DNA from: Negaprion brevirostris
Taxonomy: Eukaryota
Reading direction: 5' to 3'
NCBI GenBank assembly: GCA_030324005.1
Contig: JARDVH010000132.1
Span: 36,260,682-36,324,681, forward strand
DNA length: 64,000 nt
The notes beneath the pieces were generated by a model, which saw nothing but the letters and a program-made list of their open reading frames with translations, ran no database searches and was not told the DNA's origin. Every line of letters begins with the position of its first letter. Position 1 is the stretch's first letter. This document shows, one piece after another, positions 23,351-63,418 of the stretch. The position numbers and the translations under genes are program-made.

Positions 23351-27925
<4,575 letters not shown>

Positions 27926-30900
27926 TTAAGTTCACTGGTTTGGCTTAATGTAATTGGTCCATGTTACAAGTCGGATACAATCATTAAGCGAGGAAAAAAA
28001 ACGTATAATGCAAAATGGCAAGATACAAAATTGGATACATTATTTTCTAAAGCTACAATGATCAAATTATAATATACGAACCAATTTCTAGATAAAATGT
28101 TCGCAATACACCGGGTAATCAACGTTTTGACGTTTCTCTTTCTTGAGTTGACTTAATCTCAATTGGCAAGGTTGTAAAACAAAGTAGTTTTGTAAAAACA
28201 ATTGATAACCCCAAAGCTAAGAATCGTTTTTACTGAAGTACTGACAAGCTGACATTACCGGAGCTTCCCATGAGTTGTAAAATCCATATTGCATGTGCCA
28301 GATCACACCCAATGAAAGCAAAGCCATTGAAACACACACTCAATCATTTTCGTAATCAGACGGATTTTAAGATGATCTTATACACACCACCTTTCCCCTG
28401 ACCTTCACGGTGAGAATGACAAAAAAAACCACAGACCACAAACATGCAGGTTTATGACAATGAATTTTGAACACCGCTCCTGGTCGTTTTGTTGGCTTTG
28501 TTTCCTTCATGTTTTAAGCATAACAAAAACCGCCTTTTCTACACTTTACTCTCGGATACAAACCGGCTGCACCAAAACACATTTCTTTCCGCGAAACCCA
28601 CATGCCTTTGGGCTCATATTTGTGCCGTTTGACGGCACGTCGGAATCGATGAAAATTTGCGGAAAAAAAAGGACAAAGCGACTATCTATTTAGCAGAACA
28701 CTGTTGTATTACAAGAGTAATCGCATCTGGATTTGCAATCACACGTTTTATGCTTGACATGAAACCGACGATTCTTTAGCCCCGCGTAAAGCGAAACAGG
28801 AAGAATTGTGTTCTACAAAGCCATTTCCGGCAATTACATGTTCGTTGGAAATATTTTAATGAACATCGGGGTGCTGCATTAGTAATACGATGCAGATCCC
28901 AAAGCTTGAGCCGTTACAAATTTAAATAAATAAAATAATGTTCGTGTCCTACACGAGGACCGTTCTTAATGATCGAAAAGGCAAATTGACGTCTGCTGGT
29001 GCCCATACTCGGCAATTCTTACAGTTACTATAGCAACTTGGGTTACACTTGGCATTTCGCCAGAGGACCGAAAATAGAGCGAGCTTCTGCGGGAAGACCC
29101 ACGGCGCTCATGTGGAAATATCGCAAATGTATAAACCTTCAATCTGCAATCACGACCGGAGGAAGATCGGAGTAATCTAAACATGCAAATCTCACCGCCA
29201 TTTCAAATGAGCCCTAACTCAGCGCACATCATCGTTTTTTTGGCTCTCCTTGAGATAGACTCCACGTCGACACTAGCTGTAAGTAGTGGCTTTTGTGATC
29301 ACACGATTTTCTTCTGCAAACGCCTGTCTCCTTCTCGGGGCGATTAAGAGGTGGCTGCGGCTCCAAAGCAGAGGATCACTTTGATAGTGCACGCCTATTG
29401 ATTAATAATTAATTAATAAGTAATCAGGAAACAGGAATTAATAAAGATTCAATGTTTCAGTCAACTTTTGTGGTTTGTGGTCCATTTAACACGTGAAAAA
29501 GAAAAGAGTTTGTTGTACTCGAGAAACCAGCAAGAAAACTGACAACATGCAAATAACTGTGTGACGCACANNNNNNNNNNNNNNNNNNNNNNNNNNNNNN
29601 NNNNNNNNNNNNNNNNNNNNNNNNNNNNNNNNNNNNNNCTGCTACTCGCACTTATTTACAATACCTACACCGGTTTGCTTGCCATCAAAACAAAGGTATT
29701 TATTAAGGTTCGTGTACATTTGCTTTAAAGAAAGCATTTTTTACCCACAGCGCCGACGCGCGACGTTCCGAAGTAATCAAACTACATCAGGTCATAAGCA
29801 ATCAACATTTCTGTAGTTTCTTATATTTCAGTTGGCGTTAAGACACACACAAACGACATGTAGATCTCAATGAAGTTTCAGCCTTCACTCTTTCAGCAGT
29901 CTGACACAACCAACAGAACTCAACCGAAGTTCCCCGTTTGTTTACCCGATCTACACGGTTTGTCCTGCCTCCCCCCCCAACTCCATGCCCAGAAACTCAC
30001 AAACCCACCCCCGCCCCCTCTTTTCTCATTGAGTTGGAAGTCGCAGAGATCGCGACACGTTCAGCAATTTGGAGTTCGCACGCCAGCTTTTAGGCGGCTC
30101 TCGTTACCGAGTACCCTGGACCCATTCCGCGGGGGAAAAAAAAGAGAAAAAAAATTTAAAAACAAACCACGTGTTCCCAAACGCTCCGCTCTCCCCGTCA
30201 GGCCCTTCTGATCAGAGTGAGATTAACAAAACGGATGAGGATTTACTGATCAATAGATTAAAACACTCCATCTGTGAAACCTTCATGACCGGGAGACAAC
30301 TCGACCTTGGTACACACAACCATGTAAACACACGTGTTTTATTTCACAGACCCATGGGCTTCCGTTTATGCTGGGTAATTCATGTCAGCTGTGGAACTTC
30401 ATGTCTCCTTGAGTATTTTTTAAAGCCCGATGCGGGATGAACAATTAATCTTCATAACATCGTACTCAACCGTCCCAAAGCAACAAAGAAATAAGGAAGG
30501 ATGAAGTACAACAAAACAACGTAGACCATTTGACACATGGGTCTTTAAGATATTGTACAAGAGGAACCACACCTGAAAAATGCATAAAATATTCTAGGAC
30601 AGCCAGTAGCAATTCTGAGAAAAGCATGGTCTACTATAATATTTCAACTGTGGTGTTCAGCATGTATAATTGCAAAATAACCATAGCCAGAGCCAGTCCA
30701 AACATCGCCACTACGATATAAACACACACACACATATAAACAAGATTTCTGAAAGCTACATTAAAGCTATACAACAGCTCAGAACATAAATATTAGCTTA
30801 TTAACTAAAACTAACACATAGCATGACTGAAATCAAATACATGGGTAAAAAGGAGCGGGGTGGGGAGGGTGCAAATTGGATTGTTTTATTTCCTTTTCAA

Positions 30901-32117
30901 TGGCCATTCTGATTTTGGAATAATCAAACTATTAGACGAGAAACAAGGTTATTCGGCTGCGTATCATCCTTAGCTGCTCTCAGAACTTCTCAGTCATTTC
31001 GCTTAAGTACATCAGAGACCATTCTGTAACATTAAAACCCTGTATGACCGAAAGGACACGTTTACAAACACGGATTGTGTGCATGTGTTCTCACACAATC
31101 TCAGTTGTCCCTGTCAAGTTGCTGCTCGCTTGGATTAAGCCGAAAAGGTTTTGCGACCAAGACCATCTTGGCCCCTTGCAGTCGGCATCCTCGCAATCAA
31201 AACATCATTAGATTATATTGCAGCTCTCCGTCCCCAACCTAACACCACCAAACCGCCCCCCCCACCCCACCCCACCCCCTGCCCCACTACTACCGCCATC
31301 ATCACTATCAACAAGACAACACAGGACTGGGATAGCAAACGACGCCAACACGTTCTCGGAATCCATTCTAATAAATCTAACTGGGCAAAAAGGCGAAAAC
31401 AAAACACTTGCTCACTCCCACTCATTCAGCAAACCTCGTGCTCTGCCGGGAAAAATCACTGGTGTCAATCTGATACAGTCCTGGTTACCACTCACAAGAG
31501 ACAAAAAAAAGAGAAAACGTCCACAAACAGGCAGGGAAAAAAAATGTTTCAACATATTAATAGTTGATTATAACAAAGCTTTACAGGCTTCCTGGTTGTT
31601 TATTTACTTCTTGACACCACAAGTACTGTACAAGGATCCGAGGGGCACCGCCACCGACCGCCATGTTTACCGTCAAAACCCAAAGAAGTACTCCTGAGAA
31701 GTTAAGTTCAGAAAAGACCCCAGAGTCGACTTTTCACCCAAACAGCCAAACAAGCACATACCTCACCCTGTACGGATCCTAAGTCTATAAAATCGTTCCA
31801 CTGGGTTCCCCGTTTGATGTCAAAATACACATTTGTACATGAGCTGACTAATAACACTTCGGCGAAACAGCAGCAAATTTCCACCCTGGTCAACTTTCAA
31901 AGAAATATAAATAAAAATCCGCGACACTTCGAACCCCCCAACTTGCAATGATCGAAAGCACAAATATCATTCCCTCGATACAAACGAGCAGAAAGGTCGC
32001 AGACTCAAACGCGGCGGAGAATCGAACATTTTTTTTGCAAATGAAGTGCGTAAACGAAACTGAGTGGAAATAAGGACGGGCGATAAAGCCGCTGAGTTGC
32101 TGTCAGCCTTAAGAGCG

Positions 32118-32172
32118 AGGAGAGAGAGCGAGAGAGGAGAGAGAGAGAGAGAGAGAAAAGAGAGAGAGAGAG
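32118..32172. repeat. (GA)n/(CT)n microsatellite at the start of BMI1 intron 1
   Basis: An imperfect AG run is directly visible. A second run lies at about 32427-32466. Confidence 0.9.
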
Positions 32173-32230
32173 GCAGCACCGGGTGCATTTCAAACAGAGA
32201 AATCGGCCTCAAGTGGCGGCCACAATGTAC

Positions 32231-32480
32231 CTGGGAGATCTTTCCCAGACAGCGCAGCCTTGGTGAGACCATGCCCGGGGCACGGCGACTCCCAGCTCCA
32301 AGCCTGCACCCCGCGGAAAACAATGAAAGTTGTAGATCAGGGGGAAAAAATGAATCGCAGCCAAGCGGCCATCTTGCATGAGCTGCAGACGCTGTCAATT
32401 GCAATCGCAGAGGCTGCAGCTTCGAAAGAGAGAGAGAGAGAGAGAGGAGGGAGAGAGAGGAGAGAAAATAACATTCGTTA
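32231..32480 (-). other. BMI1: BMI1 5' leader (first) exon; TSS approximate
   Basis: The minus-strand ATTGACAGCGTCTGCAGCTC...CAAGATGGCCGCTTGGCT..ATTCATTTT...AACTTTCATTGT.TTTCCGC closely resembles the human BMI1 5'UTR as remembered. The donor CCCAG|GTACAT is at 32231/32230, within a CpG island. Confidence 0.8.
32337..32372 (-). CDS. Upstream ORF in the BMI1 leader, 11 aa, MAAWLRFIFSP
   Basis: AAG-ATG-G (strong Kozak): ATG GCC GCT TGG CTG CGA TTC ATT TTT TCC CCC TGA. Translation has not been demonstrated. Confidence 0.55.
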   Translation of the reverse strand: MAAWLRFIFSP

Positions 32481-32800
32481 AACACTAGCCCCCTCCTTCA
32501 ACCCTCACACCGACCCCTGGCAGGAGCCGATCAGCGCCCATGCAATATTTGTTCAGCCCGTTCTACCTGGTGGCGAGGCGGCCGGGCTATTCCCCGCTTG
32601 TAGAAGTTGGGAGGGAAAAAAAAACCCACCCCCGGAGCCCCAGTGATGGGTGCCGTGAAACTGACACCGTCCCCAAAATGGCTCGAGTTCGACCGCCCCG
32701 CTCCGTCACGTGGTCTCATTCCTTAAGGGTGGCCTGGGAATTAGAGTCGGTGTAATCAGAGACGATTCCACCCCCCATCCCCTTCCCCTCCTCCTNNNNN
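32481..32800 (-). promoter_or_regulatory. BMI1 CpG-island promoter with E-box
   Basis: CpG-rich sequence upstream of the leader exon, with CACGTG at 32707-32712 and GC-box-like ccgcccc nearby. A MYC E-box is an established feature of the mammalian BMI1 promoter. Confidence 0.7.
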
Positions 32801-34063
32801 NNNNNNNNNNNNNNNNNNNNNNNNNNNNNNNNNNNNNNNNNNNNNNNNNNNNNNNNNNNNNNNNNNNNNNNNNNNNNNNNNNNNNNNNCCTCTTCAAAAA
32901 AAACACCAAATAATGCACCCCTTACCAGCATAACTCGCACATCAGCTCCACCAATATCAAACCCTTTAAAAAAGAAATCTATACATGTCGCCGGGTAAAA
33001 TAAGAGTCTCGTGGTTACAATACAACAACAAAAAAGAGAATGTTATATAATAAAATATGACTGCAAACTTTTATTTCAGGCTCTTGTTCCACATTCGAGA
33101 ATACGTCTCAGCCAAGATTTCAGATGAAAGCTTCCCTTTATTAGGAATCTGCACGCTCGCATTTATAAAGTGCCAACAGGATATTATCATTACGATTAGA
33201 TTGCTGAATGATGATGTATAAAATCTTCATGTTGTAGCGACTAGGGATTGGCGGTGGGGCGACCCCCTCTTTTGATCCAATTTTTCATTTGAAATATGTG
33301 TTGTTACTGTTCACAGCCTCACGATTCCTCCCCAGCACAGATGAACTATAGTCACTGGAACGTGGACAAGTTCCCACAACTAGTTCACTTCACACATCCC
33401 GACTCTCCGTACTGATATGCCGTACAACCTCCGGGAAAGACGACTTCTTTGTATTTTTGTTTAAATTGGAAAGCAGAAACAAATACAAACGCGCGTTTCG
33501 AACGAGGGCAGAGCTCCGAAGTTGGACGTAGCAGCATTAGTTGGATACAAATGAACGGACTGACAGACATTTTGGGAAATATGGGTGTATGAAAAGTTTA
33601 AGAAAATATTCCGGGGGGNNNNNNNNNNNNNNNNNNNNNNNNNNNNNNNNNCGAGATCTGATTTAAAATTGACGTTTCCCCAAATTCCAACGAGTCTTGT
33701 AATGTTAGCAAGAAGAGGACAATAGCCGCCGAACGACTTCCAAGATGTGAATTTTATATATATATATATAAAATCACATCATTACCCATCATTAAAGAAT
33801 TGCAGCCAGTTCACAAGCTTCCCCCTTCACCCCAAACTGGCACCTGGAGACGTCAAGAATAGTAAGAGATCCCTTCAAAAACGTTGCTTTCATTCGAGGG
33901 GGGTTGGAATCAATTCGAATAGGTTTAGATCTTTGAAAGCGACTTAAAGTATCAATATTTTGACTTCTGGCAAAATATATTACGTACCCAACAAATTTGA
34001 AACAAACGTGGAATCATATCAAACAAAGTGCGAAATAAGAGCTCAGACTTTAGGAAGCATGTC

Positions 34064-37300: not shown

Positions 37301-38151
37301 TGCTGCCTCCAACACGCAGGTGGCGATGGCTACATGGCATTGTTTCAGCAAAGTCAAGTCCAAATTTCTCAGCTCCGTATGGTCTGCACACAATGGTAGA
37401 TAGTGATTTCAATACCATTTCCACACAAAACGTTCCACTTATTAGAGGCCTTCGTCTAGTCCAAGGCTTACGTGACATTAATAAAGAGGTTATTTTGTCT
37501 GCTACTTCAAAAACCAAAAAAAGACCGTTAGTTCGAAGAAAAATCAAGTCCAACAGTTTATTCTGCTTTTGCAGAACTATTTTGATACATTCTGCCTTCA
37601 CTGATAAACACTACACAAGTCACTTGAGACAGTATTGTGTCCGCTTTTACTTACGCAGAACATATTGGGACCTTAAATATTTATTAGCAACTCGTAAAAC
37701 AGAATACACTTTCAGTTGGCTACCCTGATGCATTAGGCCCCAGGATATTCGTCCACAACAATGAACAATATACAGGCTCAGTGTGCATTTCGCGCCATCA
37801 AGTCGACAGCTCGAGAACAAGGAATCGGCCAACAGAAACGCATTTAGCAAATAACACCCTGTCCCAAATGTTATTTATAACTGGATTCGGGAGCATTGCG
37901 ACGCAGAGCTGTTTGCAAAAGGAACAAACCGAGCGTAACCTTCCTGTATTCAATCAGTATAAAGAAGCAGCAGCAGCCGCCCTCCACAAATAGCTCGAAA
38001 ATACGCGCTCACCAAATACTGCTCCGTCTGTTTGTGGGTTTATGAGGCTCTCGAAAGCCGCTTCCACTAAAATGTGGAATGTTTTGTTGGAGAAGTGGCT
38101 GGGATCGGCCAGCAATTGCAACCCTTTCAGTGTGTACTCTGGCAGCTCCAT
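34310..38151 (-). CDS. COMMD3: COMM domain-containing protein 3, 195 aa. Coding exons: 38013-38151, 37272-37383, 37115-37178, 36743-36777, 35880-35940, 35726-35782, 35581-35640, 34310-34369.
   Basis: The spliced translation reads MELPEYTLKGLQLLADPSHF...LKQCHVAIATCVLEAAKQNADKSTISTLLEDCRF...HIVDASWRLEYHIRNNHLHKVNQPAYLLTLNVE...VTFSCTMEQLQDLLGKLKDAAKSMEKASQM-stop, with the COMM-domain WR motif. Exon sizes 139, 112, 64, 35, 61, 57, 60 and 60 sum to 588 nt, and all introns are GT-AG. Confidence 0.98.
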
Positions 38152-38300
38152 TGTGCTGGACTGACCTTCGACACACAGCCACGTGATCCAGCTCAGCTGA
38201 TCCACGCGGATGTGACAGTGTTAGCAATGAACAGCAGCAGCCAGAATATCAACACACTCTGCCCCAGCAAGCTGCTCCCCACCAAACTCAGCCCACTTAG
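38152..38300 (-). promoter_or_regulatory. COMMD3 promoter/5' leader with E-box
   Basis: CACGTG at 38180-38185, about 30 nt upstream of the ATG, in a locally GC-rich patch. Confidence 0.55.
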
Positions 38301-40051
38301 TAGCCATTCCTACCGAAATATTACCATAATTAGTGTGCAAAGTGCGAATGCGTAATCATTTGTGCAATAATGTGAACATGCTCTTGCAAGCTATTTCCGC
38401 ACAGCGTTGCACACATTAAAACCAGCACATCGTTACTGTCTCCTCGCACAGGACATTTAAACCACTGTTTAAAATGCAAAGATGCAACAAAAAGATAAAA
38501 TGCCAATGTTACTGTCAATTCAAACATCAAAGCAGATCTTCAACGAGTTTAGAATTTACATATTTCTAGATATAAATGGGACAATAATTGTAAATATAAT
38601 CGTGTCTTTTACTACAGCTATAGAGAGCACGCTGGAATAAGTGATTATGCCCGGCTAAACAGTTATCACATTGAAATGAACCGCCCTATCCCGCCTTACA
38701 GAACCTTTGTCTGTCCCGGAACTCAAGTAATTATTTTTCAGGTGCTTTGGTACAATAAATACTTCTAGCAACACACCAAATAACAGCTAGCTTAAGTATC
38801 AGAACTAAACCGAGAGAAGTGGGTTAGGCCAATCGTTTATTAATGCTAATTTTGTTTTTGTTCAGTGTGGTTTTTCCATTTGTAGGGGTCCCATGGAGTC
38901 CACATTTACTTTGTGGCTCTCATCAGCTGCAGGATAAGCACAGCCAGAGCATGATCACCACTGTTTAAAACACATGTTTGATGACATTGATTAAGGACAG
39001 CTGTGATGTTCTTAAAGTTATCATTTAGCGTTTCATGTTCAAGCTCAACGCGAGTGGTATTATCTGGGAAATGGTTCCCAATTCCGTGAAGGATTACTTT
39101 CATGATGAGAGGAAAGTGGTACGTAAGTTTATTGTCACAATTATGTCCCAGAATTGTGTACAGCAGGGTTGTAATTTTCTGTTGAATGATTTACTAGAAA
39201 ACAATAGAGAAGATACATCTATCCCACTGATTTGGGTGAATTTAAACCCAGTTTAGACGCAAAAGAAAATGGTCTTTACAACGTATTATGCCATTTAGAT
39301 CTCCATGAATTATTTTGTGCTTGTAATTAGTTCAAAACTGTTTGACAATCAAAATTTGAAAACAGCTTTATAAAGCTTTGAGACTACTAATGTGTGCTGA
39401 TTTTGATTATGTAAAATCAGTTTGTATTTGTTTTATCTTTTATACNNNNNNNNNNNNNNNNNNNNNNNNNNNNNNNNNNNNNNNNNNNNNNNNNNNNNNN
39501 NNNNNNNNNNNNNNNNNNNNNNNNNNNNNNNNNNNNNNNNNNNNNNNNNNNNNNNNNNNNNNNNNNNNNNNNNNNNNNNNNNNNNNNNNNNNNNNNNNNN
39601 NNTAACTTGACAGTACAATGCTGATAGACCACAAGGACAGCAGGTTGGAAGAGAAAATAGTTTCCTACGTTACAATTATTTGTTGAGTCGCAAGGTGGCA
39701 ATTTGTTGAAACAAAGAGGGGGAGCTTATTTACACCAAATGAAACAATGCAATGTTGCGTGCATCAAAATGGAAATGTGAGTGTAATCGTGTACCTGCTA
39801 CATATTGATGGTGATTGGCATAAACCAGGCCTTCATTCATGTGTACTCAACACATGCATAGATTTTCACTCAACAGCATCTGACCACATATGGAATTTGC
39901 ATTCATACAGGAAAAACTGATAGTGTTACTCAATTCTTTATTATTGAAAAGTTACAGTTTAAAATGTTACTTTTGCATTAACTTCAGCTATGCTTCAGCA
40001 GATGTGCAGTGCTGACTGTTTTCAGTGTAAAGGATTGTACATAGATGCCAA

Positions 40052-60949: not shown

Positions 60950-61942
60950 GCAAGTGTTAAGAATGGAACAATCTCCTGGTTCATTAGAATCTGTAGATAA
61001 CAATGACAAGACACTGCAATACCTTGCCAAACATAATCATGGACCAATTCCATGATTGACAAGGCCCTCCTAGGGCACTGTATTTGAAGAGAAAGAGGGT
61101 TAGTAATGTCCAGTCCCCAAGAATTAACATAAAAATAATTGTCAGGTTTGTGTGAGGTACTGATCATTATTGACTTCAATTTTGCCAGATCTCCTTCATG
61201 TCACATGCAGTCAATTGCTACCTTGATGTCAAGGACAATGACTCCCCTGGAATTCCTATCTTTATGTTTGAACTATAGTTGGAGCTGAATGACCCCATTG
61301 AAACCTAAATTGAACATAATGGAGTCAGTTTTTGGTGAGCGAATGTTGACAGCAATGTTTATAATTCCTTCCATCACTCCGCTGATGATTGAAAGTGGAC
61401 TTATAGGGGAATAATTATTTGGGTTAAATTTGCTCTTTTCCTGGACAGGGCATATCTGGCCTATTTTTCATATTGTCAGTTAGATTCCAAGCCTTTTTAG
61501 CTGTATTGCATTCGCCTATCTGGAAGCGTAAGTAGTCCTGGAGCACTGGTTTTCATCTCTACAACCAACATATTGTCACAGACCAGAGCCCAAAGCCTTT
61601 GTTGTGTCCACCTCACTTAGCTATTTCTTGATATCATGTAGATTCAATCAAATCGACTAAAGACTGGCTTCTATATACTGGGGATTTCAGGAGGAGGCCA
61701 AGAAAAGTAATTTACACCAAACTTCAGGAAGTTCTTTTGCACTCCTATGCTGAGATCTGTGATTACTGCAAATGGGAATATTTTTGTAGCCTTCAGCACA
61801 CCCCATGATTTACTTCGTTATTTACCATCATCTGCAATTTAATATGGCAACACTGCAGAGCTTTCATCTAATATGTTGGTTTGAGATCACCTACTCTCTC
61901 ATTAGCATTCTGCTTCCATCGTTTAGCATACAGGAATCCTGC
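60950..61942 (-). mobile_element. Old degenerate LINE remnant
   Basis: LINE-like decayed sequence (e.g. ttccttccatcactccgctgatgattgaaagtggact) with no intact ORF. The family is uncertain. Confidence 0.4.
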
Positions 61943-63418
61943 ATTATAGGCCAGTTAGTCTTACTTCGGTGGTCAGTAAGTTAATGGAAAGGGTCCTGAG
62001 AGATAGGATTTATGACCACTTGGAAAGATGCACTCTAATCCGGGATAGTCAGCACGGTTTTGTGAGGGGTAAGTCCTGCCTCACAAATTTGGTTGATTTC
62101 TTTGAGGAGGTAACTAAGTGTGTGGATGAAGGTAGAGCAGTTAATGTCGTACACATGGATTTTAGTAAGACGTTTGATAAGGTTCCCCATGGTAGGCTCA
62201 TGAAGAAGATGAGGAGGTGTGGGTTAGGAGGAAATTTGGCCAATTGGATAAGTGACTGGCTGTATCATAGAAGACAGAGGGTGGTGGTGGAGGGAAAATT
62301 TTCAGACCGGACGCCAGTTACCAGCGGTGTACCACAGGGATCAGTGCTGGGATCTCTGCTTTTTGTGANNNNNNNNNNNNNNNNNNNNNNNNNNNNNNNN
62401 NNNNNNNNNNNNNNNNNNNNNNNNNNNNNNNNNNNNNNNNNNNNNNNNNNNNNNNNNNNNNNNNNNNNNNNNNNNNNNNNNNNNNNNNNNNNNNNNNNNN
62501 NNNNNNNNNNNNNNNNNNNNNNNNNNNNNNNNNNNNNNNNNNNNNNNNNNNNNNNNNNNNNNNNNNNNNNNNNNNNNNNNNNNNNNNNNNNNNNNNNNNN
62601 NNNNNNNNNNNNNNNNNNNNNNNNNNNNNNNNNNNNNNNNNNNNNNNNNNNNNNNNNNNNNNNNNNNNNNNNNNNNNNNNNNNNNNNNNNNNNNNNNNNN
62701 NNNNNNNNNNNNNNNNNNNNNNNNNNNNNNNNNNNNNNNNNNNNNNNNNNNNNNNNNNNNNNNNNNNNNNNNNNNNNNNNNNNNNNNNNNNNNNNNNNNN
62801 NNNNNNNNNNNNNNNNNNNNNNNNNNNNNNNNNNNNNNNNNNNNNNNNNNNNNNNNNNNNNNNNNNNNNNNNNNNNNNNNNNNNNNNNNNNNNNNNNNNN
62901 NNNNNNNNNNNNNNNNNNNNNNNNNNNNNNNNNNNNNNNNNNNNNNNNNNNNNNNNNNNNNNNNNNNNNNNNNNNNNNNNNNNNNNNNNNNNNNNNNNNN
63001 NNNNNNNNNNNNNNNNNNNNNNNNNNNNNNNNNNNNNNNNNNNNNNNNNNNNNNNNNNNNNNNNNNNNNNNNNNNNNNNNNNNNNNNNNNNNNNNNNNNN
63101 NNNNNNNNNNNNNNNNNNNNNNNNNNNNNNNNNNNNNNNNNNNNNNNNNNNNNNNNNNNNNNNNNNNNNNNNNNNNNNNNNNNNNNNNNNNNNNNNNNNN
63201 NNNNNNNNNNNNNNNNNNNNNNNNNNNNNNNNNNNNNNNNNNNNNNNNNNNNNNNNNNNNNNNNNNNNNNNNNNNNNNNNNNNNNNNNNNNNNNNNNNNN
63301 NNCATGGAGCACACTAGAATGATAGGGAGTGGGATAGCTTGATCTTGGGATTGGACATAGCTCGGCACAACATTGAGGACTGAAGGCCCTGTACTGTGCT
63401 GTAATGTTCTGTGTTCCA
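61943..63418 (+). mobile_element. 5'-truncated, relatively young CR1 LINE (reverse transcriptase ORF2), middle part in a gap
   Basis: YRPVSLTSVVSKLMERVLRDRI...SQHGFVRGKSCLTNLVDFFEEVT...MDFSKTFDKVPHGRL...VTSGVPQGSVLG is stop-free up to the gap. The CR1 tail gaaggccctgtactgtgctgtaatgttctgtgttc follows the gap. Confidence 0.93.

Follow-up and report, generated by a model that had tools for sequence, protein, structure and literature searches.

A short upstream open reading frame on a YY1-like motif in the BMI1 leader of Negaprion brevirostris, with a conserved stop and a block shared with PCGF2

The window analysed here is a stretch of 64,000 nucleotides of contig JARDVH010000132.1 from Negaprion brevirostris (assembly GCA_030324005.1). 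It carries BMI1 on the minus strand, with coding exons from 27832 down to 23354 whose best protein matches are chondrichthyan BMI1. Exons that we take to be those of COMMD3 lie just upstream of BMI1 (about 37954-39190, minus strand), and many of the database proteins among the matches listed are COMMD3-BMI1 fusions. Also present are a tRNA-Asn(GTT) call at 52781-52855 (plus strand) and, beside a gap, a reverse-transcriptase-like fragment at 61927-62370 (plus strand), presumably of a LINE. Untranslated exon 1 of this cartilaginous-fish BMI1 contains a short upstream open reading frame (uORF; Table 1). A first-pass annotation had described a strong-Kozak 11-codon ORF inside the BMI1 leader, and both points were confirmed: the ORF is read on the minus strand from 32372 to 32337, with a purine at -3 and G at +4, and the coding exons and their protein matches place it in the BMI1 leader. 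In the model of the mature mRNA its AUG and in-frame stop lie upstream of the main ORF, the arrangement of a regulatory uORF. The surrounding 251-nt region is single-copy in a genome search, and the 16-mer pattern occurs at three places genome-wide, two of them unrelated. Comparable ORFs (strong-context ATG, stop within 16 codons) are common, with 122 in 122,564 nt of the window on both strands, so the uORF by itself is not beyond chance; its conservation is. The full YY1/TISU-like 12-mer pattern occurs once in the same 122,564 nt.

Table 1. Features of the BMI1 leader and promoter region, in window coordinates.
Feature	Position	Strand	Remarks
Core-promoter block	32655..32720	minus	E-box 32712, GC box 32699, reverse YY1-like site 32682, TGTCAG 32666
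Exon 1 short form, upstream donor after 32567	32567..32595	minus	one contig, run X5
Exon 1 part, donor after 32231	32231..32418	minus	X6 and X7 junctions; X1 spans 32231-32418
Conserved block	32320..32400	minus	TGACAG motif 32397, ATG core, ORF, CTTTCATTGT motif 32331-32320 past the stop
Second ATG, 7 nt upstream of the uORF	32377..32379	minus	weak context; 55-codon overlapping uORF in the spliced leader
YY1/TISU-like core holding the uORF start codon	32365..32376	minus	core AAGATGGC as in PMC2518114; pattern match at 32375
11-codon uORF	32337..32372	minus	MAAWLRFIFSP-stop; AAG before ATG, G after
ATG	32270..32272	minus	30-codon uORF with exon 2; without exon 2, N-terminal extension in the BMI1 frame
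Leader exon 2	29196..29394	minus	contig junctions and splice dinucleotides
9-codon uORF in exon 2	29232-29203	minus	stop one base before ATG 29201
First coding exon, canonical BMI1 ATG 27832	27721..27862	minus	contigs, protein matches

Splicing was read from contigs guessed to be RNA, none of the runs listed being recorded as such; they come from relatives and were placed on the window. Position 32231 is joined to 29394 in two of four runs (X6, X7), 32567 is joined to 29394 in one (X5), whereby the uORF is skipped, and 29196 is joined to 27862 in all four; GT or AG is present in the window at each junction. The leader consists of three exons rather than the single one implied by the first-pass annotation. 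Annotated proteins of ray, chimaera and sawshark have exon 1 joined directly to the coding exon, which probably represents a third leader form. The span of the X1 contig makes possible a transcript start at least 46 nt above the uORF AUG. Contig ends at 32351-32381 were considered as a start site and not accepted.

With exon 2 included, 335 nt separate the uORF stop from the canonical ATG; the spliced leader holds five upstream ATGs and one in-frame strong ATG (29201). The first-pass annotation overlooked an out-of-frame ATG at 32379, 7 nt upstream, and those at 32541, 32474 and 32272; the ATG at 32474 shares both frame and stop with the 11-codon uORF. Four human uORFs are catalogued and the leader of this fish has five upstream ATGs, so the share of control that falls to this uORF may be small. 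A protein product of an overlapping 56-codon frame was rejected, its sole match among 1.84 billion representatives being unrelated. An ATF4-like overlap was also rejected: in the spliced leader every uORF ends before the main ORF, and the human counterpart is the last of the four listed. The ATG at 32272 serves as start of an N-terminal extension in annotated proteins P0004, P0006 and P0002. At the end of exon 2 (29232-29196) a second YY1-like strong ATG, that at 29201, stands in the BMI1 frame with a 12-residue extension, and annotated protein P0003 begins there. The coding-exon part of the extension (27862-27832) is near-identical across sharks, rays and chimaera, and contains a reverse-strand YY1-like site (27851-27842) just before the canonical ATG.

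The proposed coincidence of the uORF ATG with a YY1-like motif was found as a match of sequence motif. The YY1 consensus used in the search pattern was our own assumption. It agrees with the core given in PMC2518114. The core is identical in a chicken primer and in the paralogue PCGF2 (see below). The surrounding 32320-32400 block is kept in fish, bird and mammal readings, and conservation reaches about 25 nt upstream of the uORF and 17 nt beyond its stop. We take the TGACAG motif to be of MEIS/TGIF type and the CATTGT motif to be of SOX type; the motif names in the core-promoter block (E-box, GC box, YY1-like, TGTCAG) are likewise presumed. That promoter block is kept in bird, eel, characiform and percomorph readings. 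CT-rich repeats flank the conserved block at 32112-32176 and 32421-32460, and similar repeats lie around the promoter and exon 1 of the paralogue. The block folds no better than its shuffles (z 0.92), and a search of 27600-33000 against Rfam returned three chance-level matches, all below the gathering score.

The BMI1 entries of Ji 2015 list four translated human uORFs (RibORF), the last being NM_005180:388-420, of 33 nt, with a 33-nt counterpart in mouse; the human-mouse difference is a non-synonymous change only (Ka 0.043, Ks 0). In the same source, the entries for uORFs translated more than three-fold over the main ORF include the first BMI1 uORF only, 388-420 being absent. The same ORF appears in Yang 2024, two of whose four BMI1 rows were used here, as ENST00000376663:500-533, called by RibORF and matched in full by RiboTish and PRICE; RiboTricer matched the stop only and RiboCode made no call. 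Ribosome profiling had been put forward as a check, and by the entries of these two Ribo-seq catalogues the human counterpart is translated. The human uORF starts 118 nt before the main ATG (hg19 coordinates), the spacing of ibex protein P0084, and 26 nt separate it from the stop of the uORF before it, the spacing of P0123. From this arithmetic of position and length the human 388-420 ORF would be orthologous to the shark uORF. In the mammal-like readings P0123, P0038 and P0125, Trp replaces the stop of the uORF that comes before this one in human, and that uORF continues in frame with BMI1; two of the three, P0038 and P0125, may represent processed pseudogenes. The presumed human peptide MAAWLAFIFC-stop offered by the first-pass annotation is compatible with the constraints from bird and ibex proteins at 11 of 11 codon positions, and its 33-nt length agrees with the published coordinates. 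In chicken, an RT-qPCR primer reported in PMC10694250 shares 17 nt around the ATG with the window, so the amplicon begins on the element; from its length of 255 bp, the AUG is 121 nt away from the main ATG, the same distance as in bird proteins. The start appears to be kept from shark to chicken and human, as had been proposed.

Other vertebrates were read through mis-predicted proteins that translate the exon in another frame, which fix two of the three positions of each uORF codon. The set is biased to species whose off-frame is open and is blind at one codon position; it derives from a protein search of which the best 120 of 665 matches were listed, with pools of 124 (+1 frame) and 126 (+2 frame) proteins. 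The +1 frame is read by 21 of the 124 (15 birds, ibex, frog, eel, characiform and two others), with codon 11 being NGA in all 21, and the +2 frame by two of the 126, both percomorphs, with codon 11 being TNA in both, which together fit TGA after 10 codons. A homologous stop fits 23 of 23 bony-vertebrate readings and the window despite spacer changes of 1, 4 and 5 nt, so the suggestion that the stop position is kept holds in every such reading found. The ORF is 10 codons long in bony vertebrates versus 11 in the shark, a whole-codon change. Conservation of the frame, also proposed, holds for the stop phase in these 23 readings. The frog reading among them was re-aligned, having gained a codon close to the start and lost one further on. 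In relative X10 two added T, possibly erroneous at a depth of 2.5, move the stop out of phase. Three of four runs from relatives cover the uORF (X8 is the one without cover): X6 has Ser10Phe, X7 has no listed change and X10 again has Ser10Phe. Relative X1 shows ten substitutions and a single gap, outside the ORF. Triplet indels make up 3/4 of those inside the ORF vs 1/5 in the flanks (hand count; p 0.17, not significant). Four relatives have one base fewer than the window in a G-run after the uORF (32297-32300), a species difference or an assembly error.

In the nearest readings the pattern M-A-A-x-L-x-F-x-F is retained while codons 2, 5 and 6 show several synonymous changes in the third position, the 10-codon length is fixed in bony vertebrates, and entries of Ji 2015 place the human uORF among peptides conserved in mouse. 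These points favour a uORF selected for its peptide, in which a hydrophobic nascent chain would slow or stall the ribosome at the stop and so gate BMI1. However, Trp4 is impossible in both percomorphs, Ile8 in one of them and Phe9 in Metynnis; the frog is shifted by a codon, Ser10Phe occurs in two relatives and the shark has an extra codon. Residue 6 may be Arg in shark and percomorphs and is excluded as such in birds, ibex, eel and Metynnis. The off-frame readings contain both synonymous and non-synonymous changes, one codon position being hidden. The peptide is also absent from the BMI1 rows in the part of the conserved-sORF tables of PMC4568590 that was searched and from the BMI1 rows of the Sandmann 2023 tables. 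A peptide-dependent mechanism is accordingly considered improbable. The uORF is real and conserved, but to call it peptide-conserved from shark to human, as the first-pass annotation did, is an overstatement.

The distance from the uORF start to the main start is 118 nt in human, 121 in chicken and, in this fish, 371 with exon 2 and 172 without it. It equals 1 mod 3 in human, chicken and this fish without exon 2. In the bird and ibex predictions no stop interrupts the +1 frame before the main ATG, and in the window none interrupts it before the donor, as would suit an entry to an N-terminally extended BMI1, through a +1 shift at the uORF stop or a non-AUG start in that frame. Against this, a single base is missing at 32297-32300 from all four relatives with cover, so that the phase is lost; exon 2 is present in both contigs that use the 32231 donor; the bird proteins came to light through their open frame in the first place; and the +1 frame is closed in the paralogue. 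Such an entry is judged highly improbable.

A second locus of the same genome (G000:C154) matches protein P0094 at 89% over the last exon, vs 56% for the window, and P0094 groups with Anolis PCGF2 (support 97/98 in a 21-row tree without outgroup); the locus is therefore taken as PCGF2. Its E-box and GC-box promoter block aligns with that of BMI1 (E 1.5e-9), and the ATG block follows 277 nt beyond (E 1e-4), about 10 kb above the first coding exon. A block of about 85 nt with the same YY1-like ATG is common to the two genes, and its alignment score was reached by none of 5000 flank shuffles in which the 12-nt core was held fixed. Both exon-1 donors, including 32567, also align in the paralogue, where their use in splicing is predicted. 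Identity is complete over the first 11 nt of the ORF, the motif beyond the stop is kept, four of the seven residues that follow Met are retained, and the wobble positions of codons 2-3 are identical in window, chicken primer and paralogue. The short stop is missing from the paralogue, in which the frame runs 67 codons on genomic DNA. A direct join of exon 1 to the coding exon there (L011 832-657, L010) would give a 63-codon uORF with its stop one base before the main ATG. A weak 27-nt intronic motif (E 0.15), which we take to resemble an RFX X-box, is common to the window (29050-29024, minus strand) and L010 (4250-4224), and in the window lies within a block conserved in bamboo shark. The single catalogued uORF of human PCGF2 has no evident likeness to the BMI1 uORF. 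From these alignments the block appears to predate the BMI1/PCGF2 duplication, and the short stop appears to be specific to BMI1, either gained there or lost in PCGF2. Retention of block and ATG without the stop points to an old constraint on the DNA, with the short ORF as a BMI1-specific overlay.

The same retention suits a pure DNA element of YY1 and neighbouring sites, whose ATG is simply the YY1 core, used incidentally by ribosomes, with the stop as a by-product of nucleotide constraint. Conservation past both ends of the ORF, the human-mouse substitution pattern, the X10 frameshift and a reverse YY1-like site kept in both promoters are in keeping with this. The homologous stop of the bony-vertebrate readings and the window, held through changes of spacer length, is not, nor is a shark length change of exactly one codon; moreover, a strong translated AUG upstream of a main ORF is in general unlikely to be neutral. 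We regard an element of DNA alone as rather unlikely.

The explanation found somewhat more probable than its absence is that BMI1 and PCGF2 share the block, and that in BMI1 only the ATG of the YY1-like site opens an ORF of 10-11 codons which lowers BMI1 translation through the positions of its start and stop and not through its peptide. The stop may be kept merely because the nucleotides are kept, which counts against this explanation. As far as the alignments indicate, the oldest constraint is on nucleotides, namely on a YY1-like core between TGACAG and CATTGT motifs without RNA structure. The block would have been held by transcription-factor binding since before the duplication; scanning ribosomes reaching the strong AUG would translate the short ORF; and BMI1 would come from re-initiation or leak across the rest of the leader. 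In general uORF biology, a strong AUG opening 10-11 codons, with about 85 nt or more to the next start, lowers output and allows re-initiation. The uORF is accordingly predicted to be a likely translational damper of BMI1, and its control of BMI1 dosage is plausible. Choice of the 32567 donor would lift the brake by removing the uORF. We entertain, tentatively and at low confidence, the wider reading that a YY1-site start older than the BMI1/PCGF2 duplication became a BMI1-only brake of fixed length through jawed-vertebrate history, and that an equally old pair of exon-1 donors switches it, setting PRC1 dosage.

Stem-cell self-renewal is governed by the dose of BMI1, which is elevated in many cancers. 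If true, deep retention of the uORF together with a splice switch would add a control point for BMI1 and an editable target, and the BMI1/PCGF2 pair offers a natural experiment on which of the two selection keeps, a YY1 site or the uORF start coincident with it. The sections seen of a review (PMC8056379) treat post-transcriptional control of BMI1 via microRNAs and the 3' UTR. A literature search, with subscription journals outside it, found in the texts covered no study of the function, conservation depth or PCGF2 copy of the uORF, no reporter or mutant study of it, and nothing on YY1 at the first exon of BMI1; in the portion covered of an eIF4G2 preprint, BMI1 is named solely as a marker.

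Dual use of a YY1 site and an AUG is already known from TISU, and the human uORF as a catalogue entry; the paralogous block without the stop is unexpected, and the splice switch is a prediction. The sections consulted of the TISU study (Elfakess and Dikstein 2008, PMC2518114) report YY1 binding and strong, non-leaky initiation, and state that the AUG of 36% of TISU carriers does not serve as main start and would be inhibitory to translation. The BMI1 element resembles TISU in its invariant core AAGATGGC, present in the sense orientation and, as there, in a single orientation in a 5' leader. It differs in position, as TISU lies at +5 to +30 from the transcription start, whereas the BMI1 core sits 387 or 499 nt from the 5' end in the main human transcripts and, in this fish, some 340 nt downstream of the promoter block; contigs of relatives extend to 32418 and 32595, also beyond TISU distance. 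One annotated human transcript starts 13 nt before the AUG, which may mark a minor nearby start. The BMI1 core further differs in standing within a longer conserved block and in opening an ORF that ends in a conserved stop. The human catalogue uORF (Ji 2015; Yang 2024) is alike in its position and length arithmetic, but the entries seen are rows only, without function or comparison beyond mouse, and give 10 codons vs 11 here. Conserved-peptide uORFs of animals found by ESUCA (PMC7530721) share the short AUG uORF of about 10 codons, deep retention and a regulatory gene. The BMI1 uORF differs from them in peptide changes at core positions and in synonymous sites that are frozen in the first codons. 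Paralogous conserved non-coding elements date from the early vertebrate genome duplications. The alignable non-coding block beside both BMI1 and PCGF2 is like these elements, and is unlike them in being exonic and promoter-proximal, with one copy overlapping a translated ORF.
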